From a virus (lineage: Duplodnaviria; Heunggongvirae; Uroviricota; Caudoviricetes): a stretch of 18,281 nucleotides of DNA. Made by a program: the position numbers and the translations under genes. Of this stretch, positions 1 to 18,141 are shown one piece after another. The stretch is taken from the IMG/VR virus record IMGVR_UViG_2690316166_000012; one strand, written 5' to 3'. The notes beneath the pieces were generated by a model. That model was not told where the DNA came from and ran no database searches. It worked only from the letters and a program-made list of their open reading frames with translations. The stretch's first letter is position 1. Each line of letters opens with the position of its first letter.

Positions 1-2
1 GG

Positions 3-21
3 GCCGGGCCGTAAGCCCGGC
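3..21 (-). terminator. GC-rich stem-loop immediately 3' of the major head gene (possible intrinsic terminator; any U-tract would lie beyond the window edge)
   Basis: Plus-strand gccgggc (3-9) pairs with gcccggc (15-21) around a 5-nt loop, directly after the TAA stop at 29-31. The window edge prevents checking for a T-run. Confidence 0.3.
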
Positions 22-28
22 TCACCGT

Positions 29-1605: not shown

Positions 1606-1616
1606 GGAGGTGTCCT

Positions 1617-1958: not shown

Positions 1959-2897
1959 NNNNNNNNNNNNNNNNNNNNNNNNNNNNNNNNNNNNNNNNNN
2001 NNNNNNNNNNNNNNNNNNNNNNNNNNNNNNNNNNNNNNNNNNNNNNNNNNNNNNNNNNNNNNNNNNNNNNNNNNNNNNNNNNNNNNNNNNNNNNNNNNNN
2101 NNNNNNNNNNNNNNNNNNNNNNNNNNNNNNNNNNNNNNNNNNNNNNNNNNNNNNNNNNNNNNNNNNNNNNNNNNNNNNNNNNNNNNNNNNNNNNNNNNNN
2201 NNNNNNNNNNNNNNNNNNNNNNNNNNNNNNNNNNNNNNNNNNNNNNNNNNNNNNNNNNNNNNNNNNNNNNNNNNNNNNNNNNNNNNNNNNNNNNNNNNNN
2301 NNNNNNNNNNNNNNNNNNNNNNNNNNNNNNNNNNNNNNNNNNNNNNNNNNNNNNNNNNNNNNNNNNNNNNNNNNNNNNNNNNNNNNNNNNNNNNNNNNNN
2401 NNNNNNNNNNNNNNNNNNNNNNNNNNNNNNNNNNNNNNNNNNNNNNNNNNNNNNNNNNNNNNNNNNNNNNNNNNNNNNNNNNNNNNNNNNNNNNNNNNNN
2501 NNNNNNNNNNNNNNNNNNNNNNNNNNNNNNNNNNNNNNNNNNNNNNNNNNNNNNNNNNNNNNNNNNNNNNNNNNNNNNNNNNNNNNNNNNNNNNNNNNNN
2601 NNNNNNNNNNNNNNNNNNNNNNNNNNNNNNNNNNNNNNNNNNNNNNNNNNNNNNNNNNNNNNNNNNNNNNNNNNNNNNNNNNNNNNNNNNNNNNNNNNNN
2701 NNNNNNNNNNNNNNNNNNNNNNNNNNNNNNNNNNNNNNNNNNNNNNNNNNNNNNNNNNNNNNNNNNNNNNNNNNNNNNNNNNNNNNNNNNNNNNNNNNNN
2801 NNNNNNNNNNNNNNNNNNNNNNNNNNNNNNNNNNNNNNNNNNNNNNNNNNNNNNNNNNNNNNNNNNNNNNNNNNNNNNNNNNNNNNNNNNNNNNNNN

Positions 2898-3013
2898 AGA
2901 CTCTCCGCCACACTGCGTGCCAGGTCTTTTCCGCTTCCCACAAACTGAAGCCGGGCAAAGACCCGCTGGAGACGCGCAACGTCCACCACGACCGCCGCAT
3001 CAATGGATGACAT
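2898..3013 (-). CDS. Head-module protein, N-terminal part only (possibly Mu G-like virion morphogenesis protein); 3' end masked
   Basis: ATG at 3013 with GGAGG 5 nt upstream; MSSIDAAVVVDVARLQRVFARLQFVGSGKDLARSVAES then N. This frame stops at 1952 right after the mask while a different frame is coding at 1849-1958, so it is a separate gene from the protease ORF. Identity is by synteny only. Confidence 0.35.
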
Positions 3014-3134
3014 ATTGCCTCCGCATAAAAGATGAATATAAAATAAACAGGCGGTCAGTGTACGCTTAACTGGTAAAGTCGGTGCCTGCCTCCGGGTGGA
3101 TCATGTATGCGGGTTCGACCCCCGCCACTGACCG
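3014..3134 (-). promoter_or_regulatory. Structured intergenic region between F and the next head gene: candidate activator-dependent late promoter plus tRNA-like hairpin element
   Basis: Minus strand has a -10-like TATATT (plus 3035-3040) about 24 nt upstream of the ATG at 3013, with no good -35. Plus strand 3109-3125 forms a hairpin GCGGG-TTCGACC-CCCGC, and GTCAGTG (3054-3060) pairs with CACTGAC (3126-3132). In Mu a C-dependent late promoter lies upstream of gene I. Confidence 0.3.
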
Positions 3135-4466
3135 TTAATCAATTTGTCCTTCCAGCACCTCAAGCATTCCGCCCCGGATATCCGATTTCAGCTTATCCAT
3201 ATTGATAACCCGGTAAGCATTCACAATCACATCCAGTTTGTCGGGCTGACGTTTCAGACTGTACGGTGCATTAACGGCAATCTGCACACTGCCATCCTTA
3301 TTTTCCACGATATACATCAGATTGTTGTGCCGTTTGTCCCACAGCACCGCTTTTGGCTTTGCCAGCATTGCCGGTAAGCGCCCGAAGTCCTCTGGCATCA
3401 GGGCGATGCCGTCATTCTGATGTTTCACACTGTCTGCATGGAGCACATTTTTACCGCTCATCGCCAGCAGGCGGGCCGGTGGCGTTCCCGTCCGGCTTTC
3501 CACTGCCTGCGCAATGCTTTCAGTCATAAAGCCCAGCGTGCGGATATCGTTACCACCTCGCCGGGTCTGCATGATGTTTTTTGCCCAGATGCGGAACGCC
3601 AGCTGCCGCTCCGGGCTGTTGTTCATCTCCTGAACCACCATTTCCCGTAACGCCGGGCTTTTCACCTCGATCAGTTTGCGGATCAGCGCCTGGTCTGTGC
3701 CGAACGCTGCCGAGCCGGGGTTATATGACCAGCCCACATCCGGTGTCATGGTTCTGGTGCCATCTGAATATGTGGTCACCGGCATTTCTCTGACTTCTCC
3801 GGTCTGTTTATCCACGCCAGCCTCAACATTGCGGGTGGAGAGATGATCCTCACCGGATGAAACGGATAACCCCATTGCATCCAGACGGGCCTGAGACAAT
3901 GGCCGCACACGGCAGCGACAGTTCCAGCCATTGGGCGGGTAGTGAGTATTCCAGAACGGATCATCATAGCGGAATACCAGCCCGTTAAGGGCGGAATGTG
4001 CCGGGCGGGTGCGGCTGTCCATCACCGCCACATACTGCCAGAACGGATGCGTGTCCGTGTTGTTCATCATCTGCGTGTAACGCCCGGCATTGTAAGCCAC
4101 ACGGGTGTTCACGTTGTAAATCAGCGCCAGACGGCGGGGGCTGCCAAGCTGCACTTCTTCCGCGTTCCCTGCACTGTCCACCACAATCTGCTTTCCCCAC
4201 CATCCCAGCTTTTGCAGGCGGGGTGTCAGCGTGCGGATAAATGTTTTCTGTGAAATGCCCTCATCAACAGCACGCTGCACTTCCGCCTGTAGTGTGGTCA
4301 GTACGTCCAGGCGTGCCACTTTTGCCGCCGTGAATGAACGGGCATGAACATCCGCGTCTGTTTCGAACCAGTTCCAGCTGATATGCTCCCCTTTGGCGCG
4401 GAAGTATGCCACCGCCTCTTTTGAGGGAAGCGTGGCGGCATAACCTAAATCAATCCCCTGTGTCAT
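3135..4466 (-). CDS. Minor head / head morphogenesis protein, Mu gpF (SPP1 gp7) family
   Basis: 444-codon uninterrupted ORF directly downstream of the portal region. Size and sequence (..YNAGRYTQMMNNTDTHPFWQYVAVMDSRTRPAHSALNGLVF..NGWNCRCRV..) fit the Mu F-type head morphogenesis protein as I recall it. Confidence 0.8.
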   Translation of the reverse strand: MTQGIDLGYAATLPSKEAVAYFRAKGEHISWNWFETDADVHARSFTAAKVARLDVLTTLQAEVQRAVDEGISQKTFIRTLTPRLQKLGWWGKQIVVDSAGNAEEVQLGSPRRLALIYNVNTRVAYNAGRYTQMMNNTDTHPFWQYVAVMDSRTRPAHSALNGLVFRYDDPFWNTHYPPNGWNCRCRVRPLSQARLDAMGLSVSSGEDHLSTRNVEAGVDKQTGEVREMPVTTYSDGTRTMTPDVGWSYNPGSAAFGTDQALIRKLIEVKSPALREMVVQEMNNSPERQLAFRIWAKNIMQTRRGGNDIRTLGFMTESIAQAVESRTGTPPARLLAMSGKNVLHADSVKHQNDGIALMPEDFGRLPAMLAKPKAVLWDKRHNNLMYIVENKDGSVQIAVNAPYSLKRQPDKLDVIVNAYRVINMDKLKSDIRGGMLEVLEGQID

Positions 4467-4714
4467 CCAGCATCCCCTTCATTTCCGCAGCGAACATGGC
4501 ATCACTGAGCAGCGTCATCAGGCGGGAATCATCCATTTCACGATAAAGGGCAGGCAGGTCTGCCAGCGCATCCGCCAGCCCCCGCGTTCTGATGGCATCA
4601 ATGACCGGCTCCAGTACCGGGTCGATGGCCTCCTGTAAGCGGCGGGCAGGCACCGCGTCCCCCATATCATCCAGTTCATCACGCGGCGTGCTTTTCGCTT
4701 CCGGCAGTCTGGCT
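4450..4714 (-). CDS. Protein-coding segment ending at 4450 (portal C-terminus if the mask hides a frame change, otherwise a separate small gene)
   Basis: Protein-like frame from the mask edge to the stop at 4450-4452 (..ARLPEAKSTPRDELDDMGDAVPARRLQEAIDPVLEPVIDAIRTRGLADALADLPALYREMDDSRLMTLLSDAMFAAEMKGMLDDTGD), overlapping the F start by 17 nt. By coordinate it is in a different frame from the portal N-terminal ORF. Confidence 0.45.
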
Positions 4715-6317
4715 NNNNNNNNNNNNNNNNNNNNNNNNNNNNNNNNNNNNNNNNNNNNNNNNNNNNNNNNNNNNNNNNNNNNNNNNNNNNNNNNNNNNNN
4801 NNNNNNNNNNNNNNNNNNNNNNNNNNNNNNNNNNNNNNNNNNNNNNNNNNNNNNNNNNNNNNNNNNNNNNNNNNNNNNNNNNNNNNNNNNNNNNNNNNNN
4901 NNNNNNNNNNNNNNNNNNNNNNNNNNNNNNNNNNNNNNNNNNNNNNNNNNNNNNNNNNNNNNNNNNNNNNNNNNNNNNNNNNNNNNNNNNNNNNNNNNNN
5001 NNNNNNNNNNNNNNNNNNNNNNNNNNNNNNNNNNNNNNNNNNNNNNNNNNNNNNNNNNNNNNNNNNNNNNNNNNNNNNNNNNNNNNNNNNNNNNNNNNNN
5101 NNNNNNNNNNNNNNNNNNNNNNNNNNNNNNNNNNNNNNNNNNNNNNNNNNNNNNNNNNNNNNNNNNNNNNNNNNNNNNNNNNNNNNNNNNNNNNNNNNNN
5201 NNNNNNNNNNNNNNNNNNNNNNNNNNNNNNNNNNNNNNNNNNNNNNNNNNNNNNNNNNNNNNNNNNNNNNNNNNNNNNNNNNNNNNNNNNNNNNNNNNNN
5301 NNNNNNNNNNNNNNNNNNNNNNNNNNNNNNNNNNNNNNNNNNNNNNNNNNNNNNNNNNNNNNNNNNNNNNNNNNNNNNNNNNNNNNNNNNNNNNNNNNNN
5401 NNNNNNNNNNNNNNNNNNNNNNNNNNNNNNNNNNNNNNNNNNNNNNNNNNNNNNNNNNNNNNNNNNNNNNNNNNNNNNNNNNNNNNNNNNNNNNNNNNNN
5501 NNNNNNNCGGGATGATCCCGCCTGTACGTCGCCCGATATCCATCACCGCCCGCATCAGGGCGCTTTTCTGCTCCGGTGTTGCCCCGGACGGGTATTTCCC
5601 GACCTTCATCGGCAGTCCGTACACCTCCAGAAATTCGGCCAGATCGCGCACGGAATAGTTTTTGAAAATGAACGGCCAGATAAGCGTCCTGACAAGCCCC
5701 GTTGCGCCACCGTAACCGGTCCGTGAACGTGACTGATGCACTATCCAGCCAAAAGGCTGAAACGCCACCCCGGCATGGCTGCCGTCACGCAGCCGCAGTT
5801 CGCTCAAATCATCCGGGTTAAGGCAGAAATGCCCGCTGTCACGCCAGCGGATGGCGCGGATGATGTGCATTTTACCGAGCATCCCGTGCTCAATTTCCAT
5901 GCAGGAATAGCCCTTCAGGATGGCATCCGTGGCGTCAAACAGCATGGCATCAAACCAGTCTGCGGAATGCAGATATTCGTCGAGCATTTCCGCGTCCTTT
6001 TTCTCATTCGCGCTGGCGTTCGGTGGCGGCTCAATACTCCATGGCACCCCCTGAATGGCAAGACGTCGCTTGCCCAGCTCCGCAAAAAGGTGGGTGTCCT
6101 TTTCTTCAATGTCAGCCGCCAGATCGGACTGGGCAATCAGGTCGCCACGTTCAGCCCCCCGAAGGCACTGCGCCGCCCGGTTCGGGGTGATACCCGAGGC
6201 GGGATGCTCAACATAACGGCTGGCAATCTGCGGAATATCCAGCGCGGTACTCTGCATCTCCGGGTCAAAGGAGAGAGGTTTTCCGTCAAGATCAATTATG
6301 CGTCCCACTACCAGCAC
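4715..6317 (-). CDS. Portal protein (Mu gp29 / DUF935-like); 3' end inside masked block 4715-5507
   Basis: Start at 6317 (GTG; in-frame ATG 20 codons later) overlaps the TerL stop. 270 visible codons 5508-6317 (..DIPQIASRYVEHPASGITPNRAAQ..WFDAMLFDATDAILKGYSCMEIE..) look like a Mu-type portal, placed between TerL and F. The out-of-frame stretch 4518-4714 is not protein-like. Confidence 0.75.
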
Positions 6318-7972
6318 CCCCGTTCAAATTCATGATATGCCTCATCGTCATCACGATAACCGCCCTCCATTGCCCGCGACCGCTCCGGCAGCGCCTGACA
6401 GGCTGATTCATCCAGGATGAATCCCTCCATGTATGACGCCCGGTTTGCCATACAGAGTGCCACGGCAAAATCACCATGGCGGCGGGCGTTCGCAGCCGTT
6501 GCGTTCTGGTCCTTCGTGCGCCCCTTGTCGATTTGCGGGATACCATTCACCACCTTCACATGGCGCAAATCATCAAGCGTGGTCTGATGGCGGGCGACGA
6601 GGATATTCTGATCTTCAAACTCGGCTTTCAGTTTTGGCATCCACTCGCCGTACCACTTCGGCGACAACATCACGCAGTCGATGATGTCCGGGCCAAAGGC
6701 CAGCAGTGCGGCTTCTGCCAGATAGCCGCCGTTACCGGTGGCGTCGAACGCCGCACCGACCAGCGCCGGAACGCGGGTCAGGATGTACATCATCACCTGT
6801 TCCTGCTGGGCATACGGCAGGTTGCGCAGCTCCACGCGAAACACCTCGCGCTTTGCCAGGGATTCGGTGATTTCCAGCAGCACAAAGCAGGACAGGTCAC
6901 CGGTGCGGGCAAAGTCTTCCCCGAAGCTGAAGCGGGAACGGGGATTTAATTTCTCTAAAAGCGGTTTTAAATGTTCTTCACACCAGGTTAAAACTTCCGA
7001 TTCACGCAGCCATGCGGCACGGCTGATGAAGTTGTCCGGGGCTTCAAACGTCAGAATCGGGATGTCGCGGATCATCGCCATTTCAATAAGCGCGTGAGGA
7101 ATATAGGCACCGCCGGATTTTTTCGGGATACAGCCGTATTCCTCGTCGGCATCCTCACGGGTCGGGGCGTTTTTGTAGAGATCATCACGCCATTTCTGCT
7201 CGCTTTCCGGTGACCATTCCTGATCGGTGACGTAACAGATACGACGGTACAGCCCGTCCGCAATGGCATCATCCAGGGTTATGCGGTGGACGCTGTAATC
7301 CTTGCGCCCCTCGCGGGCTTCCTGAATGTACTGATTAAACAGATTATCGACGCCGTTATGCGTGGAGATAATACGCACGCGCGCGCCCCACATAGTGAGC
7401 GCCATTGCCGCCTTGAGAAGCTCATCCAGTGACTCGTGGAACGCGGCTTCATCAATCACCACATCCCCCTGAAGGCCGCGCAGGTTTGACGGACGGGAAG
7501 ACAGTGCCTGAATTTTGAATCCACTGTTCGGAAAGCGGATCATGTAGGTCAGAATTTCTTCTTTTTTATCCCGATCCCAGAAGGTCTGCTCATACACATC
7601 AGCATCCGCCAGCTGGTTAAAGGCGCGGGAGAACAGGGCGCAGGCAGAAATATATTCCAGCGCCATCTCCTGCTTTGATCCCACATAAAACACATTGCGG
7701 CCACCACGACGCTTCGGTTTTGCAGCAGTAATGACGTTACGCCCGGCTTCCGCCCAGGTAAGACCGGTGCGGCGGGATTTTTCCGCAATGCAGACCTGAC
7801 TTTCATCCTCAAACCAGCGGGCCTGATAATCCAGAAACACCGGCATATCACCGGGCAAATCAAGTCTGTCCGGCACATCCACGCCCAGCAGGGCTTTTTC
7901 ACCGGACAGATCAATTTTGCGGGGAGGCGTCATTTGTATCAGTGAAGGAGACGTTTCTTTGGCTTTGTTCAT
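6308..7972 (-). CDS. Terminase large subunit (Mu gp28-like)
   Basis: 555-codon uninterrupted ORF. ATG at 7972 overlaps the stop of the upstream 82-aa ORF (TGATG), and its stop overlaps the portal start. Size, position between small terminase and portal, and sequence fit a large terminase. Confidence 0.8.
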   Translation of the reverse strand: MNKAKETSPSLIQMTPPRKIDLSGEKALLGVDVPDRLDLPGDMPVFLDYQARWFEDESQVCIAEKSRRTGLTWAEAGRNVITAAKPKRRGGRNVFYVGSKQEMALEYISACALFSRAFNQLADADVYEQTFWDRDKKEEILTYMIRFPNSGFKIQALSSRPSNLRGLQGDVVIDEAAFHESLDELLKAAMALTMWGARVRIISTHNGVDNLFNQYIQEAREGRKDYSVHRITLDDAIADGLYRRICYVTDQEWSPESEQKWRDDLYKNAPTREDADEEYGCIPKKSGGAYIPHALIEMAMIRDIPILTFEAPDNFISRAAWLRESEVLTWCEEHLKPLLEKLNPRSRFSFGEDFARTGDLSCFVLLEITESLAKREVFRVELRNLPYAQQEQVMMYILTRVPALVGAAFDATGNGGYLAEAALLAFGPDIIDCVMLSPKWYGEWMPKLKAEFEDQNILVARHQTTLDDLRHVKVVNGIPQIDKGRTKDQNATAANARRHGDFAVALCMANRASYMEGFILDESACQALPERSRAMEGGYRDDDEAYHEFERGCW

Positions 7973-8220
7973 CAGGCTTTACCTGTCAGAATGCTTTTGA
8001 TTCGGAACTCAAGCTCTTCAGTCATCACGTCCACGCCACTCAACTCATCAGTGACAGCCTCTGCCAGCAGCGAATGCAGTTGTTCCAGGGATATTTCCCC
8101 GGCAATGCTGAGTTCAGTCAACTCACGACACGCTTTTATGGTTTCAGGAGGTAACTGTGTTGCAAGACTGAATGCCTTCTGATGAGCACTACTCATCAGT
8201 GAGCGGTTATCTGTTACCAC
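7972..8220 (-). CDS. Small protein carrying a copy of the small-terminase C-terminal tail
   Basis: GTG at 8220 preceded by a strong SD (AGGAGGTGA), and stop overlapping the TerL ATG. Its C-terminus AVTDELSGVDVMTEELEFRIKSILTGKA parallels the C-terminus of the 193-aa upstream protein, AVTDELRGVDGMSEQIEFRIRQMLLGKA. The DNA is also visibly similar. Confidence 0.6.
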   Translation of the reverse strand: MVTDNRSLMSSAHQKAFSLATQLPPETIKACRELTELSIAGEISLEQLHSLLAEAVTDELSGVDVMTEELEFRIKSILTGKA

Positions 8221-8230
8221 GATTCACCTC

Positions 8231-8812
8231 CTACGCCTTACCAAGCAGCATCTGCCTGATACGGAATTCTATCTGCTCGCTCATGCCATCCACGCCGCGC
8301 AACTCGTCGGTGACGGCGTTCGCCATCTCTTCAGCAAATGCGGCCCGGATTTCTTTTTCACGCTTAATGCTGCGCTCGGCGGCACTTTCCGCACGCTGTG
8401 CCGACAGGAGGATGTCCTTAATAAGGCGCATATCCACATCGCTGTCGCTGTTCAGGGATTCGGTGGCAGCACGCAGACGGCGGTACATCAGGGCGCGGGA
8501 CATTTCCAGAATCAGTGCCGTGGTTTCACCGGTCGGCTTGTCCCCCAGTTCGGCCATCATGGCTTTTGTCTGCTCGCGTAAATCACGCAGGTTACGGGCA
8601 ATCAGCTCATTACGGGAGGCCTCCCGGCTGATGGCCGCCGGTGAAAGCTGCTGCTCTTCCGGCAGACCCGCCTCACGGATCAGGCGGTTGATTTCCTCGC
8701 GGATCTGGACCTGCGTCAGGCGTTTTTCACGCAGCATTTCCAGCAGCGGCTTACGGATGCTGTCGGGGAGCAAATCCACCTTGCGTACACGGCCACGCGT
8801 TGGCTTATCCAT
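8231..8812 (-). CDS. Putative terminase small subunit / DNA-binding protein (Mu gp27-like)
   Basis: 194-codon ORF with ATG at 8812 and AAGGGGG upstream. Basic, HTH-like N-terminus (RGRVRKVDLLPDSIRKPLLEMLREKRLTQVQIREEINRLIREAG), coiled middle and conserved C-terminal tail, immediately upstream of TerL. Confidence 0.65.
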   Translation of the reverse strand: MDKPTRGRVRKVDLLPDSIRKPLLEMLREKRLTQVQIREEINRLIREAGLPEEQQLSPAAISREASRNELIARNLRDLREQTKAMMAELGDKPTGETTALILEMSRALMYRRLRAATESLNSDSDVDMRLIKDILLSAQRAESAAERSIKREKEIRAAFAEEMANAVTDELRGVDGMSEQIEFRIRQMLLGKA

Positions 8813-8814
8813 CG

Positions 8815-9105
8815 TTACCCCCTTGCGCGTGGTTTCTTCACACCCGGAACGGTGGCGCGGCCTTCCGCCACATCCTGACCCCGGCCGGTCAGTTCAACGA
8901 TGAAATAACCGTTAACAAGCGTGCGCTTACGCACCAGTCCCTGCTCGGCAAGCCAGGCAATATGGGTATGCACGGTGTCGCGGGACACGCGGTGGCCGTA
9001 ATCATCCAGGCAGTCCTGAAGCACGGATTCGCCCAGTTCGCCGTTGTAATCCGCCAGCGACCGCAGAATGACAAGACGCTGATCTTCAGTAATGAAATCA
9101 CTCAT
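8815..9105 (-). CDS. Small winged-helix-like DNA-binding protein (Mu gp26 position)
   Basis: 97-codon ORF with ATG at 9105. Sequence (..QRLVILRSLADYNGELGESVLQDCLDDYGHRVSRDTVHTHIAWLAEQGLVRKRTLVNGYFIVELTGRGQDVAEG..) has a helix-turn-helix-wing pattern. Tightly packed between the membrane protein and TerS. Confidence 0.5.
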   Translation of the reverse strand: MSDFITEDQRLVILRSLADYNGELGESVLQDCLDDYGHRVSRDTVHTHIAWLAEQGLVRKRTLVNGYFIVELTGRGQDVAEGRATVPGVKKPRARG

Positions 9106-9409
9106 TGTGTTTTTTCCTTACAGCCTGCTCCAGCAGCAGTTCGTTCTGGTGGGAGACGGATTTCAGGGTGGCATTGGTGGCCTTAAGCTCACCGCGCAGG
9201 GTGGTGATTTCGATATTGAGTCTGTTCACCTCCTGCTGCGTGGGCAGGCCGGAAATCCGGCTCTCCACCCGCTCAACCCGGTCGGAGAGTTTTTCAAAGG
9301 CCTCGCGGGGGACAAAGGTTTTGCGCATCAGCGCCATAAAGATCCCCCCGGCCGTGGCCGTTGCCGACAGGATCGGCACGACATAATCTTTAACGATGCT
9401 GATCCACAT
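9098..9409 (-). CDS. Single-TM membrane protein with coiled coil (Mu gp25 / releasin-like position)
   Basis: 104-codon ORF with ATG at 9409 and GGAGG 7 nt upstream. Hydrophobic N-terminus (ISIVKDYVVPILSATATAGGIFMALM) followed by a charged coiled-coil segment. Lies in the lysis cassette downstream of the spanins. Confidence 0.5.
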   Translation of the reverse strand: MWISIVKDYVVPILSATATAGGIFMALMRKTFVPREAFEKLSDRVERVESRISGLPTQQEVNRLNIEITTLRGELKATNATLKSVSHQNELLLEQAVRKKHNE

Positions 9410-9617
9410 GACCGGCCTCCATGATGCTCTGGCAGTTCACACAACGGATGGCATCCGGCACGGCAACCAGACGGGCGGCCGGAATGTCACCCCCGCAGTC
9501 TGCGCATACACGCCTGCCCGGAGTATCCTCCACCCGGCACTTACGTGTCAGCCGGTCACAAAGGGCGCGTTCTGTTGCCCGCTCCATGACTGCCTGAGCA
9601 CAATCTGAATCATCCAT
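9390..9617 (-). CDS. TraR/DksA-family C4 zinc-finger protein
   Basis: 76-codon ORF from ATG at 9617 (AAGGA upstream); the ORF track's longer start at 9683 overlaps the o-spanin. Contains CADC-x17-CVNC (C-x2-C-x17-C-x2-C), typical of phage TraR-like proteins. Confidence 0.65.
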   Translation of the reverse strand: MDDSDCAQAVMERATERALCDRLTRKCRVEDTPGRRVCADCGGDIPAARLVAVPDAIRCVNCQSIMEAGHVDQHR

Positions 9618-9627
9618 ACCTTTTTCC

Positions 9628-9999
9628 TTACTTCGTCTTTCCTGCCGGAACAGCAGACGTTCCGGCCATATCAGTAAATTCATGCTGTCGCCGTACCTCC
9701 AGACGGCGGATGCTGGCCTTGTCCACGTTGCAGTTCTTAATCACCGCCAGCAGTTGCAGGTTGTAAGTGACCGATGCGCCAAACGTGAACGGCTGCGGCA
9801 CAGAAGGGACCAGACAGTCAGCCAGCCATTCAGCGGGGATCGGCACCGGCTTCACCGGCACGTATTTCACAGACGGCCCGCCGCACCCGGTCAGCCACAT
9901 CATCAGGCACAGGAACAGCGGCCGCAGGCACCGTTGCCAGCGACCGGCGGACAATGCTCTGCTGTTCCTCGCTGTGCTGCATGTTCTGCTGTTTTTCAT
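9628..9999 (-). CDS. o-spanin (outer-membrane lipoprotein spanin subunit), overlapped with the i-spanin
   Basis: Lipobox LTG|C (Cys codon at 9883-9885) preceded by a basic-then-hydrophobic signal (RWQRCLRPLFLCLMMWLTG), then a proline-rich mature part (CGGPSVKYVPVKPVPIPAEW...). Its 5' part lies inside the i-spanin gene in another frame. Start is uncertain (ATG at 9999, or 9903/9900). Confidence 0.55.
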   Translation of the reverse strand: MKNSRTCSTARNSRALSAGRWQRCLRPLFLCLMMWLTGCGGPSVKYVPVKPVPIPAEWLADCLVPSVPQPFTFGASVTYNLQLLAVIKNCNVDKASIRRLEVRRQHEFTDMAGTSAVPAGKTK

Positions 10000-10330
10000 T
10001 CGTGGCCGCCTTACTGATTTGTGAAATGAGTTGCAGGGTGCGTTGCTGGTTTGCCAGCACCAGACGGGCTTCGTCCCGTTCACGCACAAGCACATGATTA
10101 TTGTCCTCAAGGCGCTGCGTCTTCTGGTGCATTCCCCATACCACGGCAGCCAGCACACTCATCACCCCCAGCGCCGCCATACAGCCTCCGGCAATCAGGG
10201 CTGGTAAGGGATTATTCACCGCAGCCACAGCACACCCCGCAGCACCACAACAGCACACAGCAGCGCAATCATGAGCGGTCGCCAGAAACGGTTCAGACTT
10301 TCGGCAAGTCGTAACGACATAACCATTCAT
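9830..10330 (-). CDS. i-spanin (inner-membrane spanin subunit)
   Basis: Hydrophobic TM-like segment (PALIAGGCMAALGVMSVLAAVVW) followed by a long charged/Gln-rich helical region (HQKTQRLEDNNHVLVRERDEARLVLANQQRTLQLISQ...), with the o-spanin overlapping its 3' end. Start is ambiguous (ATG 10330 or in-frame GTG 10219). Confidence 0.5.
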   Translation of the reverse strand: MNGYVVTTCRKSEPFLATAHDCAAVCCCGAAGCAVAAVNNPLPALIAGGCMAALGVMSVLAAVVWGMHQKTQRLEDNNHVLVRERDEARLVLANQQRTLQLISQISKAATNEKQQNMQHSEEQQSIVRRSLATVPAAAVPVPDDVADRVRRAVCEIRAGEAGADPR

Positions 10331-10363
10331 CCGCCGAACGGCGGGCCTCAAGACCGGGGAGTT

Positions 10364-10575
10364 TCACCCCCTTTGAATAAATCCNNNNNNNNNNNNNNNN
10401 NNNNNNCAGCGGATATACTGCTTACAGGACGCGGGCATCTGCCCGGCATTGATAAGGCGCAGGAGCGTGGAGTTGCGAAAGTTCGTTTCACCGGCCCAGA
10501 AAATCCAGGAGGCCAACGCCACCGTCTGACCACGGGTAAGCGGCACCTGAACATGACGATCGATAGCCGCAAAGG
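10364..10575 (-). CDS. Endolysin, GH24 lysozyme family, C-terminal part; 5' end masked
   Basis: Frame reads ..FAAIDRHVQVPLTRGQTVALASWIFWAGETNFRNSTLLRLINAGQMPASCKQYIR.., matching the C-terminal region of P22 gp19 / lambdoid R-type lysozymes as I recall them. Ends at stop 10364-10366; upstream part lies in mask 10576-11388. Confidence 0.5.
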
Positions 10576-11439: not shown

Positions 11440-11463
11440 AAATCCCGCGCTGTGGCGGGATTT
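11440..11463 (-). terminator. Rho-independent terminator (minus strand)
   Basis: Perfect 9-bp stem aaatcccgc / gcgggattt with 6-nt loop (plus 11440-11463). On the minus strand it is followed by a T-run (TTATTTTAAAC), then GGAGG and an ATG at 11397 (MAE...) starting the next gene, which runs into the mask. Confidence 0.5.
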
Positions 11464-12836
11464 GGNNNNNNNNNNNNNNNNNNNNNNNNNNNNNNNNNNN
11501 NNNNNNNNNNNNNNNNNNNNNNNNNNNNNNNNNNNNNNNNNNNNNNNNNNNNNNNNNNNNNNNNNNNNNNNNNNNNNNNNNNNNNNNNNNNNNNNNNNNN
11601 NNNNNNNNNNNNNNNNNNNNNNNNNNNNNNNNNNNNNNNNNNNNNNNNNNNNNNNNNNNNNNNNNNNNNNNNNNNNNNNNNNNNNNNNNNNNNNNNNNNN
11701 NNNNNNNNNNNNNNNNNNNNNNNNNNNNNNNNNNNNNNNNNNNNNNNNNNNNNNNNNNNNNNNNNNNNNNNNNNNNNNNNNNNNNNNNNNNNNNNNNNNN
11801 NNNNNNNNNNNNNNNNNNNNNNNNNNNNNNNNNNNNNNNNNNNNNNNNNNNNNNNNNNNNNNNNNNNNNNNNNNNNNNNNNNNNNNNNNNNNNNNNNNNN
11901 NNNNNNNNNNNNNNNNNNNNNNNNNNNNNNNNNNNNNNNNNNNNNNNNNNNNNNNNNNNNNNNNNNNNNNNNNNNNNNNNNNNNNNNNNNNNNNNNNNNN
12001 NNNNNNNNNNNNNNNNNNNNNNNNNNNNNNNNNNNNNNNNNNNNNNNNNNNNNNNNNNNNNNNNNNNNNNNNNNNNNNNNNNNNNNNNNNNNNNNNNNNN
12101 NNNNNNNNNNNNNNNNNNNNNNNNNNNNNNNNNNNNNNNNNNNNNNNNNNNNNNNNNNNNNNNNNNNNNNNNNNNNNNNNNNNNNNNNNNNNNNNNNNNN
12201 NNNNNNNNNNNNNNNNNNNNNNNNNNNNNNNNNNNNNNNNNNNNNNNNNNNNNNNNNNNNNNNNNNNNNNNNNNNNNNNNNNNNNNNNNNNNNNNNNNNN
12301 NNNNNNNNNNNNNNNNNNNNNNNNNNNNNNNNNNNNNNNNNNNNNNNNNNNNNNNNNNNNNNNNNNNNNNNNNNNNNNNNNNNNNNNNNNNNNNNNNNNN
12401 NNNNNNNNNNNNNNNNNNNNNNNNNNNNNNNNNNNNNNNNNNNNNNNNNNNNNNNNNNNNNNNNNNNNNNNNNNNNNNNNNNNNNNNNNNNNNNNNNNNN
12501 NNNNNNNNNNNNNNNNNNNNNNNNNNNNNNNNNNNNNNNNNNNNNNNNNNNNNNNNNNNNNNNNNNNNNNNNNNNNNNNNNNNNNNNNNNNNNNNNNNNN
12601 NNNNNNNNNNNNNNNNNNNNNNNNNNNNNNNNNNNNNNNNNNNNNNNNNNNNNNNNNNNNNNNNNNNNNNNNNNNNNNNNNNNNNNNNNNNNNNNNNNNN
12701 NNNNNNNNNNNNNNNNNNNNNNNNNNNNNNNNNNNNNNNNNNNNNNNNNNNNNNNNNNNNNNNNNNNNNNNNNNNNNNNNNNNNNNNNNNNNNNNNNNNN
12801 NNNNNNNNNNNNNNNNNNNNNNNNNNNNNNNNNNNN

Positions 12837-12966
12837 TTTCTGGCATATCCCGCTTGTCACATTCTTTATCCATAAAAGAAACGAATTTCTCTGCATCTTC
12901 CGGTTTCATGCCTCCGGCGATAAGGATTTTGCGATATTCATAAGACGATCTTAATTCAATACTCAT
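12837..12966 (-). CDS. Hypothetical protein, N-terminal part only (3' end masked)
   Basis: ATG at 12966, 15 nt after the upstream stop. Visible sequence MSIELRSSYEYRKILIAGGMKPEDAEKFVSFMDKECDKRDMPE is protein-like; an overlapping alternative frame is less so. Confidence 0.35.
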
Positions 12967-12981
12967 TATTCACCTGCCTGC

Positions 12982-13332
12982 TTAATCTGTTTCCAGTGCT
13001 TTGCTACGGGCTATAGCCTCACATTCAAAAAATACCGACTCCGGCACGCGCTCTTTTAATTCACGAACAAGGAAATCATTAACGCGTTCATGACGTCTTA
13101 TATTTCTTTCCTTTTCCTCCTGGCGCAATACAGCAAGGCGGTATTCAACAGCCCGGCGTTGTTTCTGAAAGACAGCCAGTGCTTTTCTGGCAGCATTACG
13201 CCATGCATCATCGCCACATGGTGCGTATTCAAGCTGAAATTTAATCTCTTCAATAGTTTCTTTGATTTTTGCCAGCAAGCTAAGACAGTCGCTTATTGTC
13301 TCCAGCTTTTCATTATCAATATAACTTCTCAC
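12982..13332 (-). CDS. Hypothetical coiled-coil protein (accessory operon)
   Basis: GTG at 13332 overlaps the upstream stop (GTGA); an ATG at 13374 is the alternative start. Charged helical protein (..LSLLAKIKETIEEIKFQLEYAPCGDDAWRNAARKALAVFQKQRRAVEYRLAVLRQEEKERNIRRHERVNDFL..). GC content is visibly lower than in the late genes. Confidence 0.45.
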   Translation of the reverse strand: MRSYIDNEKLETISDCLSLLAKIKETIEEIKFQLEYAPCGDDAWRNAARKALAVFQKQRRAVEYRLAVLRQEEKERNIRRHERVNDFLVRELKERVPESVFFECEAIARSKALETD

Positions 13333-13658
13333 GCATTCACCTCCCGTAATTCCGGTAAAGCCGAAATATGACACCAGTGCGTCACCTGTCCGTCTTCATC
13401 TTCAAGGCAGGCTCCGGTTTCTTCATCAACAAAAAAGCCTTCATACCCCATATGGCCGATGCGCAGCTCCTGACGGTGACCATACTGAACAATCAGCACG
13501 ACAGCCTCCATATCAGGTGGGAAAGCATCATTCAGTGAATGCCAGGGATAACCGCGTAAATCCCCGAAATAAACACCGGTCAGCGTTCCGCCACAGAGCG
13601 GCATTCCGGCGGCACACACAAGAGGTTCATCTGATTCAACAAATAAGGTCGTTATCAT
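13329..13658 (-). CDS. Hypothetical small acidic, lysine-free protein (accessory operon)
   Basis: 110-codon ORF whose ATG overlaps the upstream stop (ATGA), with GGGAG upstream. Translation has 18 D/E, 4 R and no K, plus several Cys/His (..PLVCAAGMPLCGG..HWCH..). Confidence 0.5.
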   Translation of the reverse strand: MITTLFVESDEPLVCAAGMPLCGGTLTGVYFGDLRGYPWHSLNDAFPPDMEAVVLIVQYGHRQELRIGHMGYEGFFVDEETGACLEDEDGQVTHWCHISALPELREVNA

Positions 13659-14308
13659 GGCGTTAACTCCCGTANNNNNNNNNNNNNNNNNNNNNNNNNN
13701 NNNNNNNNNNNNNNNNNNNNNNNNNNNNNNNNNNNNNNNNNNNNNNNNNNNNNNNNNNNNNNNNNNNNNNNNNNNNNNNNNNNNNNNNNNNNNNNNNNNN
13801 NNNNNNNNNNNNNNNNNNNNNNNNNNNNNNNNNNNNNNNNNNNNNNNNNNNNNNNNNNNNNNNNNNNNNNNNNNNNNNNNNNNNNNNNNNNNNNNNNNNN
13901 NNNNNNNNNNNNNNNNNNNNNNNNNNNNNNNNNNNNNNNNNNNNNNNNNNNNNNNNNNNNNNNNNNNNNNNNNNNNNNNNNNNNNNNNNNNNNNNNNNNN
14001 NNNNNNNNNNNNNNNNNNNNNNNNNNNNNNNNNNNNNNNNNNNNNNNNNNNNNNNNNNNNNNNNNNNNNNNNNNNNNNNNNNNNNNNNNNNNNNTTGGGT
14101 GTTTATATTTCAGTAACTCCGGGTATGAACTGCGCAATACACCAGTCCGGTTATATACAGCCCAGACAGTTCTTTTTATTCTGGCAGCAATATCCTTAAC
14201 CGGGGTGGATGAATAAAGCGCAATCAGTAGCGCATCTTCTTCAGGTGTCCACGCGCGGACATGAGCGGGTGTACGACCTTTTCGCCCCATGTGTTGTAAA
14301 ATCATCAT
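13655..14308 (-). CDS. Hypothetical protein with Myb/SANT-like helix-turn-helix N-terminus; interior masked
   Basis: ATG at 14308 with AGGGGGTGA upstream, overlapping the preceding stop. N-terminus GRKGRTPAHVRAWTPEEDALLIALYSSTPVKDIAARIKRTVWAVYNRTGVL resembles a Myb/SANT-type repeat. Only 6 codons are visible after mask 13675-14094, so one continuous gene is assumed, not shown. Confidence 0.4.
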   Translation of the reverse strand: MMILQHMGRKGRTPAHVRAWTPEEDALLIALYSSTPVKDIAARIKRTVWAVYNRTGVLRSSYPELLKYKHPXXXXXXXXXXXXXXXXXXXXXXXXXXXXXXXXXXXXXXXXXXXXXXXXXXXXXXXXXXXXXXXXXXXXXXXXXXXXXXXXXXXXXXXXXXXXXXXXXXXXXXXXXXXXXXXXXXXXXXXXXXXXXXXXXXXXXXXXXXXXXRELTP

Positions 14309-14311
14309 ACA

Positions 14312-14728
14312 TCACCCCCTGACTCGCTTTTCGGCAGCATAAAACTCATCAGACAGAATTTCGGTCATTTTCCGTTTTGCGGAATCATCTTCGCACTGAA
14401 GATAAATCACATTGTCAACGCAGAACCAGTTCACGGGACCATACAATATTGCTGAGAAGTCAATACCCAGCCAGAACAACAGGGCATCGGTTCTGGCATA
14501 CGTGACGGGCGAATATTCACGCCACAGACTGTTCAGTTCATCAGAGGCAACACGCAGGGCTTTAGGGATACGTGATGTGCGCGGTGTGCAGCTCCAGCCA
14601 TTCGACGCAGTCGGTTTTCGCCATAAGTCGCGATGAAAAGGATATTTGTCCTCCGTAAAACGCAGTCCCTTAAAACAAAAACCACTGATACTGAATTCAA
14701 ATACCGACCGGCACGCAACATTCAGCAC
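14312..14728 (-). CDS. Hypothetical protein; 5' boundary uncertain (frame stays open upstream into the mask)
   Basis: C-terminal two thirds are protein-like (..KALRVASDELNSLWREYSPVTYARTDALLFWLGIDFSAILYGPVNWFCVDNVIYLQCEDDSAKRKMTEILSDEFYAAEKRVRG). No well-placed ATG; the GTG at 14728 is the ORF-track start, and the frame continues open to the mask at 14774. Confidence 0.35.
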   Translation of the reverse strand: MLNVACRSVFEFSISGFCFKGLRFTEDKYPFHRDLWRKPTASNGWSCTPRTSRIPKALRVASDELNSLWREYSPVTYARTDALLFWLGIDFSAILYGPVNWFCVDNVIYLQCEDDSAKRKMTEILSDEFYAAEKRVRG

Positions 14729-14747
14729 GGCCTCAAGGCGTTTCGCC

Positions 14748-15073
14748 TCATCTTTTACCGTCTGGCAGTCCTGNNNNNNNNNNNNNNNNNNNNNNNNNNN
14801 NNNNNNNNNNNNNNNNNNNNNNNNNNNNNNNNNNNNNNNNNNNNNNNNNNNNNNNNNNNNNNNNNNNNNNNNNNNNNNNNNNNNNNNNNNNNNNNNNNNN
14901 NNNNNNNNNNNNNNNNNNNNNNNNNNNNNNNNNNNNNNNNNNNNNNNNNNNNNNNNNNNNNNNNNNNNNNNNNNNNGCCATCACAAACTGGGGCACGCCT
15001 TCTTTCATGGCCTGCTCATCAACTTCAGCCACCACATAAACGGTTTCACAGGTCAGAACGCCCTGAGCAAATT
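14748..15073 (-). CDS. Hypothetical protein, mostly masked
   Basis: The visible island 14977-15073 is protein-like in only one minus frame (FAQGVLTCETVYVVAEVDEQAMKEGVPQFVMA). That frame ends at a stop at 14748-14750 after mask 14774-14976. Confidence 0.3.
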
Positions 15074-15172
15074 NNNNNNNNNNNNNNNNNNNNNNNNNNN
15101 NNNNNNNNNNNNNNNNNNNNNNNNNNNNNNNNNNNNNNNNNNNNNNNNNNNNNNNNNNNNNNNNNNNNNNNN

Positions 15173-15417
15173 CACTGAACATCATCAGCCGCAGATTCCT
15201 GTCTGCATTTGCGACGAATCGGCTGCACCGGGCGGGGACGCGGAATATCATAAAAACCGTTACATTCCGTCAGCACCCCGGCATCAACCGCATCACGCAG
15301 AAAATAAACCATGGAGGATGGCGGCATATTCATTTTTTCAGCCAGTACGCCGCAGGTCAGACGCCCGTAAATACTCAGCCAGTTTTTAACCCCTTCAAGC
15401 ACTTTTGCATCAATCAT
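15173..15417 (-). CDS. Hypothetical protein with possible winged-helix N-terminus; 3' end in masked block
   Basis: ATG at 15417 with GGAGGAA upstream, 3 nt after the upstream stop. MIDAKVLEGVKNWLSIYGRLTCGVLAEKMNMPPSSMVYFLRDAVDAGVLTECNGFYDIP... The in-frame stop at 15046 sits where another frame is coding, so the gene probably ends inside mask 15074-15172. Confidence 0.4.
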
Positions 15418-15420
15418 GAA

Positions 15421-15765
15421 TTATTCCTCCGTCAGCGCCACATATTCAGAATGTTTAATTTCCTGGCATTCTTCAGGAATACATCCGTTTATTTCCCTGC
15501 CATAAGCGCCCACTTTAAACACCACGCACAGGGCATCACGGGAGAACGAAGGGGTCCACCAGGAGTCCGTGTTAAACATGGAGGGGATTCTCATTACCCC
15601 CAGCTTTTCACAGAGCCAGACAAGGAAATCAGGACGCTTTCTTAACTCGCGTTCAGCGGCTTCAATCATTGCGGCAATCGCCGGTCCTTCAGGGCATGAC
15701 TCATCAGGTCTGGCTATAAAGCACTGTCCGCCACCGATAAAAGCCACATCATCGCGCTTACGCCA
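15421..15765 (-). CDS. Hypothetical protein, C-terminal part (gene immediately downstream of gam); 5' end masked
   Basis: Protein-like frame ..WRKRDDVAFIGGGQCFIARPDESCPEGPAIAAMIEAAERELRKRPDFLVWLCEKLGVMRIPSMFNTDSWWTPSFSRDALCVVFKVGAYGREINGCIPEECQEIKHSEYVALTEE, stop at 15421-15423. The same frame has ATGs at 16260 and 16239 overlapping the gam 3' end, so it may be up to about 270 aa. Confidence 0.4.
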   Translation of the reverse strand, partial: WRKRDDVAFIGGGQCFIARPDESCPEGPAIAAMIEAAERELRKRPDFLVWLCEKLGVMRIPSMFNTDSWWTPSFSRDALCVVFKVGAYGREINGCIPEECQEIKHSEYVALTEE

Positions 15766-16225
15766 NNNNNNNNNNNNNNNNNNNNNNNNNNNNNNNNNNN
15801 NNNNNNNNNNNNNNNNNNNNNNNNNNNNNNNNNNNNNNNNNNNNNNNNNNNNNNNNNNNNNNNNNNNNNNNNNNNNNNNNNNNNNNNNNNNNNNNNNNNN
15901 NNNNNNNNNNNNNNNNNNNNNNNNNNNNNNNNNNNNNNNNNNNNNNNNNNNNNNNNNNNNNNNNNNNNNNNNNNNNNNNNNNNNNNNNNNNNNNNNNNNN
16001 NNNNNNNNNNNNNNNNNNNNNNNNNNNNNNNNNNNNNNNNNNNNNNNNNNNNNNNNNNNNNNNNNNNNNNNNNNNNNNNNNNNNNNNNNNNNNNNNNNNN
16101 NNNNNNNNNNNNNNNNNNNNNNNNNNNNNNNNNNNNNNNNNNNNNNNNNNNNNNNNNNNNNNNNNNNNNNNNNNNNNNNNNNNNNNNNNNNNNNNNNNNN
16201 NNNNNNNNNNNNNNNNNNNNNNNNN

Positions 16226-16750
16226 NNNNNNNNNNNCATCCTGTTCAAAAGGCTCGACATAAAAACTTTCAGCGCCTTTATTCACCTTTATACCGGCAAT
16301 GCCTTTCACCGCATCCGGCTCCGCCAGGACGGCTTCCTTGTTCACTTCCTCTTTCGTGCGGATGAATCGCTCAAGCCCCATACGGCGCAGCGTGTCAATC
16401 ACACCTTCCACATCACGGCTGACGCTGCATGATGGCGTTCCCAGCCGCCATGACACCGTTCCGGTGGTCAGATTGGCAGTTTTGGTTTTGCCGCCGTTCG
16501 TCAGCTCATCACGGTTGGTTTTACACCAGTCCTGAATCCCTTTAAAAAGCACTTTGATTTGCTTTTTAAGATTTTCAATCTGCGGCGTATAACGGGCGGT
16601 GATTTCTGCCACTTCATCATTCATCGCCGTTTCCAGGCGCAGCGCCTCTCGCTGAATATCGCCCAGGGTGCGGATATCGCGGCTGACTTCTTCGCGGGTC
16701 TGCGGTGCGGCCTCGGCTACAGCCTTTAATTTTGTAACGCGTTTTGCCAT
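16226..16750 (-). CDS. gam: Host-nuclease inhibitor protein Gam (Mu Gam family)
   Basis: ATG at 16750 with AAGGA upstream. MAKRVTKLKAVAEAAPQTREEVSRDIRTLGDIQREALRLETAMNDEVAEITARY...ANRDELTNGGKTKTANLTTGTVSWRL...RFIRTKEEVNKEAVLAEPDAVKGIAGIKVNKG...PFEQ closely parallels Mu Gam as I recall it. About 171 codons are visible; the 3' end (16226 is an estimate) lies just inside mask 15766-16236. Confidence 0.85.
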
Positions 16751-16761
16751 TTTGTTTTTCC

Positions 16762-17055
16762 TTATTGCAATGTATCTGGTGCGTTCTGCAAGGAGCGGCG
16801 CTCAATGCTGCTTTTCACCCCCAGAGCCTGCATGGAACCCTGAAGTTCATCTGTCAGAAACTGAATAATTGTGGGGCTGTGATATTTAAGAATTTGCGCA
16901 TAAACATCACATGGGCCTGTCGGTCTGTTCTCCGTATCACGTTCGATTTTTACAGTGGCAGTAACCCCCTCCGTGATTTCCTGACTATCATTACCGGCTG
17001 GCTTTACTTCATGCATTACGTGGTTAAATTCAAAAATAACGCGTACTTTGCTCAT
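16762..17055 (-). CDS. Hypothetical small protein, downstream member of a tandem paralog pair
   Basis: ATG at 17055 (MSKVRVIFEFNHVMHEVKPAGND...), 4 nt after the upstream paralog's stop. Shares the N-terminal motif MSKV-x-(V/H)-I-(I)-FE-(F/Y) with the upstream gene. Lower GC. Confidence 0.45.
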   Translation of the reverse strand: MSKVRVIFEFNHVMHEVKPAGNDSQEITEGVTATVKIERDTENRPTGPCDVYAQILKYHSPTIIQFLTDELQGSMQALGVKSSIERRSLQNAPDTLQ

Positions 17056-17059
17056 GGAA

Positions 17060-17332
17060 TTACCCCTGCTGATTAAATTCATTACCGTTAATAACCCCGG
17101 AAGCCATGCCCCTGTCTTTCATGAATGCACTGGCTTTCATTGCCACAAGCTCTGCGAAGTTTCTGCTTTCCGCGAGCATAACCCCCCCAAAAATCATGGC
17201 GGGTCCATCACCTTTCTGCTTTATCCCGGTTGAACGTATGTCCAGACTTACCCCCATGCGCACTGTTCCATCAGCGTTTTTATGGATAACGTGCTCCTTA
17301 TATTCGAAAATAATGTGTACGACTTTACTCAT
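17060..17332 (-). CDS. Hypothetical small protein, upstream member of a tandem paralog pair
   Basis: ATG at 17332 overlaps the upstream stop (ATGA). MSKVVHIIFEYKEHVIHKNADGTVRMGVSLDIRSTGIKQKGDGPAMIFGGVMLAESRNFAELVAMKASAFMKDRGMASGVINGNEFNQQG. Confidence 0.45.
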   Translation of the reverse strand: MSKVVHIIFEYKEHVIHKNADGTVRMGVSLDIRSTGIKQKGDGPAMIFGGVMLAESRNFAELVAMKASAFMKDRGMASGVINGNEFNQQG

Positions 17333-17627
17333 CCTCTGGTCCTCGTTCTGTTTGGATAACTGACCCGGCGTCTGACCTCACGGCAGAACCGAATCATGGC
17401 ATTAAAGGCTTCTTCCTCCGTCACCGCTTCCGGTATCCCCGGAACCAGTAACTGCTCCTGTTCATCACGTCCATGACGCGCCATAACCTCAATCACATGC
17501 CGTACCGTGGCAGGCTTTCCGGCAACTATCGGCAATGCACCTTCCGGCAGGACGTAACCAAACTCAATAAGACCACTCGACCACGCCCATGCAATGAGAT
17601 TTTTTTTCACCTCACACCTCCCAGTAA
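17329..17627 (-). CDS. Hypothetical protein, C-terminal part; 5' end masked
   Basis: Protein-like frame (..KKNLIAWAWSSGLIEFGYVLPEGALPIVAGKPATVRHVIEVMARHGRDEQEQLLVPGIPEAVTEEEAFNAMIRFCREVRRRVSYPNRTRTRG) with stop at 17329-17331 overlapping the next start. Confidence 0.4.
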
Positions 17628-18141
17628 NNNNNNNNNNNNNNNNNNNNNNNNNNNNNNNNNNNNNNNNNNNNNNNNNNNNNNNNNNNNNNNNNNNNNNNNN
17701 NNNNNNNNNNNNNNNNNNNNNNNNNNNNNNNNNNNNNNNNNNNNNNNNNNNNNNNNNNNNNNNNNNNNNNNNNNNNNNNNNNNNNNNNNNNNNNNNNNNN
17801 NNNNNNNNNNNNNNNNNNNNNNNNNNNNNNNNNNNNNNNNNNNNNNNNNNNNNNNNNNNNNNNNNNNNNNNNNNNNNNNNNNNNNNNNNNNNNNNNNNNN
17901 NNNNNNNNNNNNNNNNNNNNNNNNNNNNNNNNNNNNNNNNNNNNNNNNNNNNNNNNNNNNNNNNNNNNNNNNNNNNNNNNNNNNNNNNNNNNNNNNNNNN
18001 NNNNNNNNNNNNNNNNNNNNNNNNNNNNNNNNNNNNNNNNNNNNNNNNNNNNNNNNNNNNNNNNNNNNNNNNNNNNNNNNNNNNNNNNNNNNNNNNNNNN
18101 NNNNNNNNNNNNNNNNNNNNNNNNNNNNNNNNNNNNNNNNN

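Follow-up and report, generated by a model that had tools for sequence, protein, structure and literature searches.

Does the run of small, tightly packed minus-strand genes at positions 12982-14728 of the virus record IMGVR_UViG_2690316166_000012 form a module in its own right, or does it belong to a known region of a Mu-like phage? The window analysed here is the whole 18,281-base stretch of that record, which is interrupted by 13 runs of N. A preliminary description, made from the letters of the window, had seen in the block at least four coupled genes of low GC content between gam and the late genes, and had put them forward as the best candidate for an undescribed module, possibly one with host-takeover or anti-defence functions. 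We find that the block very probably represents the promoter-distal part of the early operon in a Mu-like prophage common in E. coli, known as the semi-essential early (SEE) region, and that it contains a plasticity slot. A region of this type is already known and the identical block is already annotated in RefSeq; it is not a new module.

Gene order and homology place the block in a Mu-like early region

The E. coli JKHS016 record NZ_CP147059 is 100% identical to all unmasked segments of the window around the block, and we used the corresponding region (L001), in which the genes lie on the plus strand, as an unmasked proxy with coordinates converted segment by segment. The N-runs of the window do not preserve length: the 420 N at 13675-14094 correspond to 318 nt in L001, the 203 N of the masked run at 14774-14976 stand for 183 nt, and across the 22-N run at 10385-10406 the identical record is continuous, with zero hidden sequence. 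Lengths and frames of open reading frames (ORFs) that cross these runs in the window are therefore unreliable. We name the seven genes after gam g1 to g7; the four genes of the preliminary description are g3 to g6 (Table 1).

L001 carries a Mu-like prophage in which a repressor gene, a ner-like gene, the genes for a Mu-type transposase A and a MuB-type ATPase, five small genes (e1 to e5), gam and g1 to g7 are followed by a reverse-strand DUF2513 gene, gemA ('gp16 family'), mor, a lysozyme gene and the late genes. The family assignments (Gam, GemA, Mor, Mu transposase and MuB) come from annotation and Pfam. From ner to mor, the single gene that opposes the common strand is the reverse gene before gemA, and gam forms the upstream border of the region, separated from g1 by 97 nt. 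In BLASTP comparisons with Mu, the product of gam is 57% identical to Mu Gam across 175 aa and that of gemA 47% identical to its Mu counterpart; between them, g2 is 67% identical to Mu gp11 over its full length and g3 52% identical to Mu gp12 (residues 1-168, E = 5e-63). This order bears out the earlier placement of the block after gam in the semi-essential region of a Mu-like prophage, and sets its other border at gemA/mor.

Mu itself has the layout gam (Mup10), gp11, gp12, gp13, gp14, reverse-strand gp15, gemA and mor. The block resembles this region in position, strand and tight packing, in the pairing of g2 and g3 with gp11 and gp12, and in the single reverse gene before gemA, whose place is held by gp15 in Mu; the functions of gp11 to gp15 are likewise undefined in Mu. 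It differs in carrying g4 to g7 where Mu has gp13 and gp14. The genes g1, g4, g5 and g6 are without a Mu counterpart, and g4, g5 and g6 have none in SfMu either. The SEE regions of transposable phages have been described as long and poorly conserved and as encoding small uncharacterised proteins (PMC8705779), and the semi-essential genes of Mu lie on the Pe transcript and are largely of unknown function (PMC3820752). The block answers to this type of region, lying on the early-operon strand between the transposition genes and gam on one side and gemA-mor on the other, and consisting of small, poorly conserved genes whose functions are undefined.

The gam-to-gemA block is also widespread. Among 5,426 complete E. 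coli genomes, 233 match it, with O157:H7 and other Shiga toxin-producing E. coli (STEC) strongly represented, and 123 of the 233 reach at least 80% query coverage. Mu-like prophages of O157:H7/STEC strains, probably of the Sp18 type, and the elements in LC727881.1 and LC727895.1 share gam-g1-g2-g3-g4 and gemA-mor with L001 at 83-97% DNA or protein identity. The last two are annotated inside Stx2c- and Stx1a-converting prophages, and the element therefore transposes into other prophages. With a gp12 homolog (g3) among the four genes, a gp11 homolog (g2) beside them, every gene assigned to a PHROG, an identical copy annotated in RefSeq and a presence in this many genomes, the claim of an undescribed module falls.

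The block is probably continuous with the early operon

The three junctions reported in the preliminary description lie exactly where it placed them on the minus strand: the stop codon of g5 and the GTG start of g6 share a GTGA at 13332-13329, g4 and g5 overlap in an ATGA at 13658-13655, and the stop codon of g3 is followed after a 3-nt gap by the start of g4 (TGATGTATG at 14314-14306). Each start in the run has a GGAG-like Shine-Dalgarno (SD) sequence within the end of the preceding gene. The coupling of the four genes is thus real, but the run does not begin with them; further upstream g1 and g2 are coupled in the same manner, at distances of 3 and -1 nt, as far as the gap after gam.

A scan for consensus promoters returned fewer promoter-like sites than shuffled sequence and no consensus-strength promoter inside the run. 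The sole strong sense-strand terminator in a consensus scan between ner and lys is a GC-rich 9-bp hairpin with a T-tract after gemA. The borders of the block carry neither promoter nor terminator in these scans, and on this ground we rejected the idea that it is transcribed on its own. The scans fit the model for Mu, in which a single long early transcript from Pe takes in the semi-essential genes (PMC3820752). Against Rfam the block gave no family, only a sub-threshold, snoRNA-like chance match. The hairpin at 11440-11463 also sets mor apart from gemA, two genes that overlap in Mu, and mor may therefore be expressed differently, by read-through or from a promoter of its own.

As to base composition, the estimate of roughly 40-45% GC at 13021-13140, below the late genes, proved accurate: GC is 0.433 there and 0.472 over the unmasked part of 12982-14728, compared with 0.569 in the late genes (1-10575). 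Tested formally in 120-nt windows, the block (0.466) lies below the late genes (0.568; Mann-Whitney p = 1e-5), and so do the per-gene values of GC at third codon positions (GC3), which range from 0.34 to 0.55 in g1 to g7 (p = 0.0002); pooled GC3 is 0.454 for g1-g7 and 0.389 for g4-g7 vs 0.625 for the lysis and late genes. The difference does not extend to the other early genes, from which the block cannot be distinguished significantly (p = 0.07 for windows, p = 0.17 for GC3). The true compositional low comprises g4 to g7 and the reverse-strand gene (GC3 0.34-0.46); g1 to g3 (0.48-0.55) are like the flanking host genes (0.54), and gemA and mor stand at 0.61. Of the 15 gene junctions in the early operon, 10 overlap or span at most 4 nt, and so do 9 of the 17 in the part that starts with gemA and runs through the late genes. 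Neither tight junctions nor low GC singles out the block.

Relatives exchange genes of the block at gene borders

If g3 to g6 were a module, they should occur together across Mu-like relatives, a check that the preliminary description itself had proposed. We compared five relatives by tblastn and blastn. The gene g2 is kept in all five, g3 in all E. coli forms, and g4 in all relatives, where it has two alleles (identity near 97% for one and about 71% for the other); g6 is the rarest gene in the block (one of five), and natural relatives without g1, g5, g6 or g7 were found. Of L007 and L006, one lacks g1 and the other has in its place a DUF5420 gene of 24% identity. O157 strain F8952, which has the divergent g4 allele (about 72%), carries a gene for a 61-aa hydrophobic peptide in place of g5 and g6, and two other small genes before gemA. 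In two strains other small genes stand in for g6, g7 and the reverse gene. This presence/absence matrix rules out g3-g6 as a co-inherited module, and g5+g6, g6-g7 and g1 are swapped independently at gene borders, so that inheritance of the four genes is not joint.

The exchanges are sharply bounded. DNA similarity to L001 breaks at 20026, 20332, 20695, 20953 and 21435-21481, most of these positions being no more than 20-30 nt from a gene border, and the breaks pair as 20026/20695, 20332/21435 and 17846-17888/18371-18409. In the Stx2c-associated element, two additional small genes coupled by ATGA sit exactly where g4 meets g5. In O157-type and Stx2c-associated elements (L004 8244-8653; L005 5244-5429) the gene coupled by ATGA to g4 encodes the 61-aa peptide, which is strongly hydrophobic and probably has two transmembrane segments; in L004 it is followed by an ATGA-coupled gene for a 75-aa acidic protein. 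In a Salmonella relative the slot after g5 is taken by a gene (L008 6326-7396) whose 356-aa product contains a dATP/dGTP pyrophosphohydrolase domain (PF04447), the only enzymatic domain among the slot cargo. The alternative cargo falls throughout into PHROGs of unknown function. At the position of E. coli gam, the same Salmonella prophage has a gene for a DUF3164 protein (L008 3100-3738).

Exchange is found elsewhere in the early operon as well: e5 (L001 16938-17231; about 16762-17055 on the minus strand of the window) is about 61% identical in three relatives, with flanking genes at 91-100%, and by this comparison is a second mosaic spot.

Low-GC slots of this kind have a precedent in the Mu-like phages of Pseudomonas aeruginosa, whose left arm contains plasticity regions (RGPs, regions of genomic plasticity), some of them coinciding with GC valleys (Cazares et al. 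2014, PMC4378225). These fixed slots, mostly in the early arm, hold zero to six small ORFs of unknown function that are non-homologous between syntenic genomes, and RGP G carries anti-CRISPRs (PMC4378225). Here g5 to g7 with the reverse gene, and likewise g1, occupy fixed slots in the early arm, with cargo that changes between relatives and a GC valley. The likeness stops there, the Pseudomonas phages being of another genus without sequence homology to the prophage, whose cargo is without demonstrated function.

Morons of lambdoid phages have their own promoter and terminator. The block genes share with them a deviant composition and a placement between neighbours that are adjacent in relatives. 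Unlike morons, they are tied to the operon through stop and start codons that overlap by 4 nt, and neither a promoter nor a terminator of their own was seen in the consensus scans, so that they are not morons in the strict sense.

The Myb/SANT-like protein g4

In the window the middle of g4 is N, and L001 supplies an intact 183-aa ORF. The earlier observation of a Myb/SANT-like helix-turn-helix (HTH) in one product is upheld, at a marginal score: g4 passes the Pfam model PF00249 (Myb_DNA-binding) with 25.2 bits against a gathering cut-off of 24.4, and a profile built from 14 homologs matches c-Myb R2R3 (1h88) across two repeats with E = 1e-4. In the alignment of these homologs, W-T-x-E-D, F-x-x-x-E and D-D-D-V-x-L-I-R-x-L-R-D...F-x-E-I-x-E-K-F motifs are conserved in three repeats. 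Repeats 1 and 2 align with R2R3, each opening with W-T-x-E-E-D. Unlike c-Myb, g4 is a stand-alone protein of a bacterial virus, and its third repeat, which gave AsnC-type and HTH_10 Pfam matches, looks nearer to the HTH of AsnC and of sigma-70 region 4. The PHROG assignment is to phrog_323, 'transcriptional regulator, D5-like' (E = 6e-52). In mycobacteriophages, similar repeats lie under genes that bear the annotation HNH endonuclease or methylase.

Outside Mu-like phages, homologs of 44-46% identity occur in P2-like and integrase-type prophages. In the P2-like prophage L009 the homolog lies directly upstream of the gpA replication gene and overlaps it, and in the integrase-type prophage L010/L011 it lies among Rad52-like, Lar, Ash/pRha and DUF551 genes. 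In other temperate phages the homologs of g4 adjoin genes for replication and recombination, and its most likely role is therefore that of a DNA-binding early regulator or an accessory factor for phage DNA transactions.

The 3' ends of the g4 homologs (L001 20020, L008 6004, L009 6549, L010 6564) have a common form, in which the terminal codons (...RELxP and the stop) include an SD-like GGGAG or GAG and run into an ATGA, the start of the following gene. The gene joined through this ATGA is an unrelated one in each type of phage, being g5, the transmembrane peptide gene, P2 gpA or the gene for an Ash/pRha protein. Judged from these sequences, the junction that closes g4 resembles a conserved recombination point at a gene boundary.

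The remaining genes of the block

The gene g1 is a distant member of the DUF5420 family (phrog_2260, E = 2e-73), its product being 41% identical to the SfMu DUF5420 protein. The g2 protein matches the Pfam family 'Phage Mu Gp11 C-terminal domain' (Gp11_C) with E = 5e-40 and, weakly, HTH_20. The g3 protein belongs to phrog_2314 (E = 1.5e-80). Position 14728, the end of the block as first drawn, is only an internal in-frame GTG of g3, since the 171-aa product aligns with Mu gp12 from residue 1; the true start lies within the masked run at 14774-14976.

A word-indexed search with g5 gave 18 clusters, essentially limited to E. coli and Salmonella, and of the 1.84 billion representatives searched exhaustively with a profile, 14 matched at E <= 1e-3. 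One of the 14, P0060, was judged spurious, being a eukaryote-like FN3-repeat protein matched via a 'DEDGPVTH' motif. A likeness of g5 to DUF551 (PF04448), suspected by eye from a W...P...VTHW..LPE pattern, was also rejected: g5 has no Pfam match at E <= 1, and when the family profile of g5 was aligned with a DUF551 protein by hhalign, the probability was 0.6%. One distant g5 relative (P0059) has a sub-threshold DUF551 match (15.9 bits vs a cut-off of 22). The AlphaFold2 model of g5, made from a shallow alignment, has a β-rich C-terminal half and a mean predicted local distance difference test (pLDDT) of 45; we regard it as unreliable and excluded it from fold searches.

Like g5, g6 is limited to E. 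coli and Salmonella. Its AlphaFold2 model (pLDDT 87) consists of helices at residues 12-34, 41-94 and 97-114, the central one 54 residues long, and fold searches with it returned only unnamed phage proteins or generic helical hairpins, which are non-specific. The start of g7 lies 15 nt after g6, and its product is 32-36% identical to SfMu gp14. The DUF2513-like reverse gene, which sits at the position of Mu gp15, shares 39 nt with the 3' end of g7 and was not found in the relatives compared, homology to which ends at L001 20953, inside g7.

Searches for function agree with the earlier statement that no product matches a characterised one. Pfam gave no match for g3, g5, g6 or g7, NCBIfam none among the block genes, and PDB sequence searches with g1, g2, g3, g5 and g6 nothing significant and no relative with a solved structure. 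All genes except g4 fall into PHROGs of 'unknown function'. The PADLOC defence profiles gave no match at E <= 0.1 for g1 to g6 and just 10 bits (E = 0.07) for g7. Literature searches that covered DUF5420, Mup11/Mup12 and DUF2513, and also screens for the functions of Mu early genes, yielded no paper on what these families do.

Table 1. Features of the gam-to-gemA region in the window and in the unmasked proxy L001
Feature	Window position	Strand	L001 position	Remarks
gam (host-nuclease inhibitor)	16237-16750	-	17243-17773	Visible part; stop in masked run 15766-16236; Gam family
g1, C-terminal part	15421-15765	-		180 aa in L001, start masked; distant DUF5420/phrog_2260 member
g2, Mu gp11 homolog	14977-15417	-		177 aa in L001; masked 15074-15172; 3' end in 14774-14976
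g3, Mu gp12 homolog	14312-14773	-	18950-19465 (RefSeq coding sequence)	171 aa in L001
g4	13655-14308	-		183 aa in L001; masked 13675-14094; three Myb/SANT-like HTH repeats
g5	13329-13658	-		109 aa; phrog_6925; ATGA overlap with g4; E. coli/Salmonella Mu-like prophages
g6	12982-13332	-		116 aa, all-helical; GTG start in GTGA overlap with g5; phrog_6158
g7, N-terminal part	12837-12966	-	20709-21017 (RefSeq coding sequence)	102 aa in L001, rest masked; phrog_1988
Reverse DUF2513-like gene	in masked run 11466-12836	- in L001	20979-21389	136 aa; GC 0.387; phrog_585
Terminator-like hairpin	11440-11463	-	21971-21994	AAATCCCGCCACAGCGCGGGATTT then TTATTTT; directly 3' of gemA

The window and JKHS016 outside the block

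Far from the block, in the head-gene region, window positions 1-4714 and L001 28341-34481 are not collinear. Window 1-1624 aligns to L001 in the opposite relative orientation, and 2898-4576 is mostly without a match there. RefSeq lists pseudogenes in JKHS016 for a split tape-measure protein, the portal (DUF935) and the protease. This non-collinearity, together with the pseudogenes, indicates that the window comes from a different, apparently more intact prophage copy.

Discussion

In the arrangement that we consider very probable, the promoter-distal early operon of this Mu-like lineage consists of a conserved core, g2 (Mu gp11), g3 (Mu gp12) and g4, and of a plasticity slot formed by g5, g6, g7 and the reverse gene, with g1 upstream, in which small genes of lower GC are swapped at gene boundaries. 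Upon induction the genes would be read as one long Pe transcript, as in Mu, and coupled initiation would govern their translation. If kil, gam and gem are a guide, the products of g5, g6 and g7 would be dispensable accessory proteins that most likely bind host proteins. Several points weigh against this account. Pe transcription, translational coupling and dispensability are extrapolated from Mu and from the sequence; the promoter and terminator scans register consensus matches only, so that a Mor/C-type or weak internal promoter would escape them, and the 97-nt gap between gam and g1 may hold a promoter. DNA binding by g4 is likewise deduced from domain matches barely above the Pfam threshold, and our analysis gives no indication of the roles of g3, g5 or g6.

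A rival reading, and the one favoured by the preliminary description, is that at least one of g4 to g7 acts early in infection or induction to inhibit a host defence system or another host process. In Mu this part of the genome is where kil, gam and gem lie, all acting on host functions (PMC3820752), and anti-CRISPRs are found in the low-GC plasticity regions of Pseudomonas Mu-like phages (PMC4378225). The families concerned are narrow and lineage-restricted, and their low GC, patchy distribution and exchange as cassettes are typical of accessory and counter-defence genes. Direct support did not emerge: the PADLOC profiles gave no matches, no homolog or fold match of known function was found, the fold searches with g6 were uninformative and g5 could not be modelled, and the genes do not travel together. 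We regard an anti-defence or host-takeover cassette as a tentative proposal, less likely than not to be correct.

About equally doubtful is the idea that the block is a phage-internal regulatory or replication module, in which g4, perhaps with a winged-helix-like g2, would regulate transcription or aid transposition or replication and g5 and g6 would be its partners. The three HTH repeats of g4 and the 'transcriptional regulator' label of phrog_323 point this way, as do the weak HTH_20 match in g2, the retention of g4 in all the E. coli and Salmonella relatives compared, and the position of its homologs, coupled upstream of the P2 gpA initiator gene in one prophage and among recombination genes elsewhere. 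Yet Mu and SfMu are fully functional without g4, g5 and g6, g5 and g6 are unlinked to g4 outside the lineage, and g4 alleles of about 71% identity in prophages that are otherwise 90-97% identical speak for exchange rather than co-adaptation. That g5 and g6 are non-functional remnants or annotation artefacts of a decaying prophage is very improbable. The prophage of the host record is indeed rearranged, with several late-region pseudogenes, and the structure prediction for g5 is of low confidence; but full-length, frameshift-free homologs at 57-95% protein identity exist in E. coli and Salmonella, g5 is 80% identical in protein and 76% in DNA between the two, as under purifying selection, the SD sequences and 4-nt overlaps are conserved, and g6 folds confidently (pLDDT 87).

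For the original candidate, the result mainly clears matters up, since a region singled out as a possible new module proves to be the usual semi-essential early region of a lineage that is widespread and already annotated. The roles of such early genes, those of Mu included, have been open for decades, and g4 to g7 with their alternative cassettes offer a compact group of early genes that varies in nature and is carried by hundreds of genomes of pathogenic E. coli and Salmonella. Should one or more of g5, g6, g7 or g4 turn out to be an inhibitor, so far overlooked, of a host defence system or another host process, which is conceivable though we would not expect it, the SD-ATGA junction at the end of g4 would be a portable docking point for such genes, used by temperate enterobacterial phages of Mu-like, P2-like and integrase types in their early operons. 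The slot is a practical target that could show whether enterobacterial Mu-like phages house counter-defence or host-takeover genes there.

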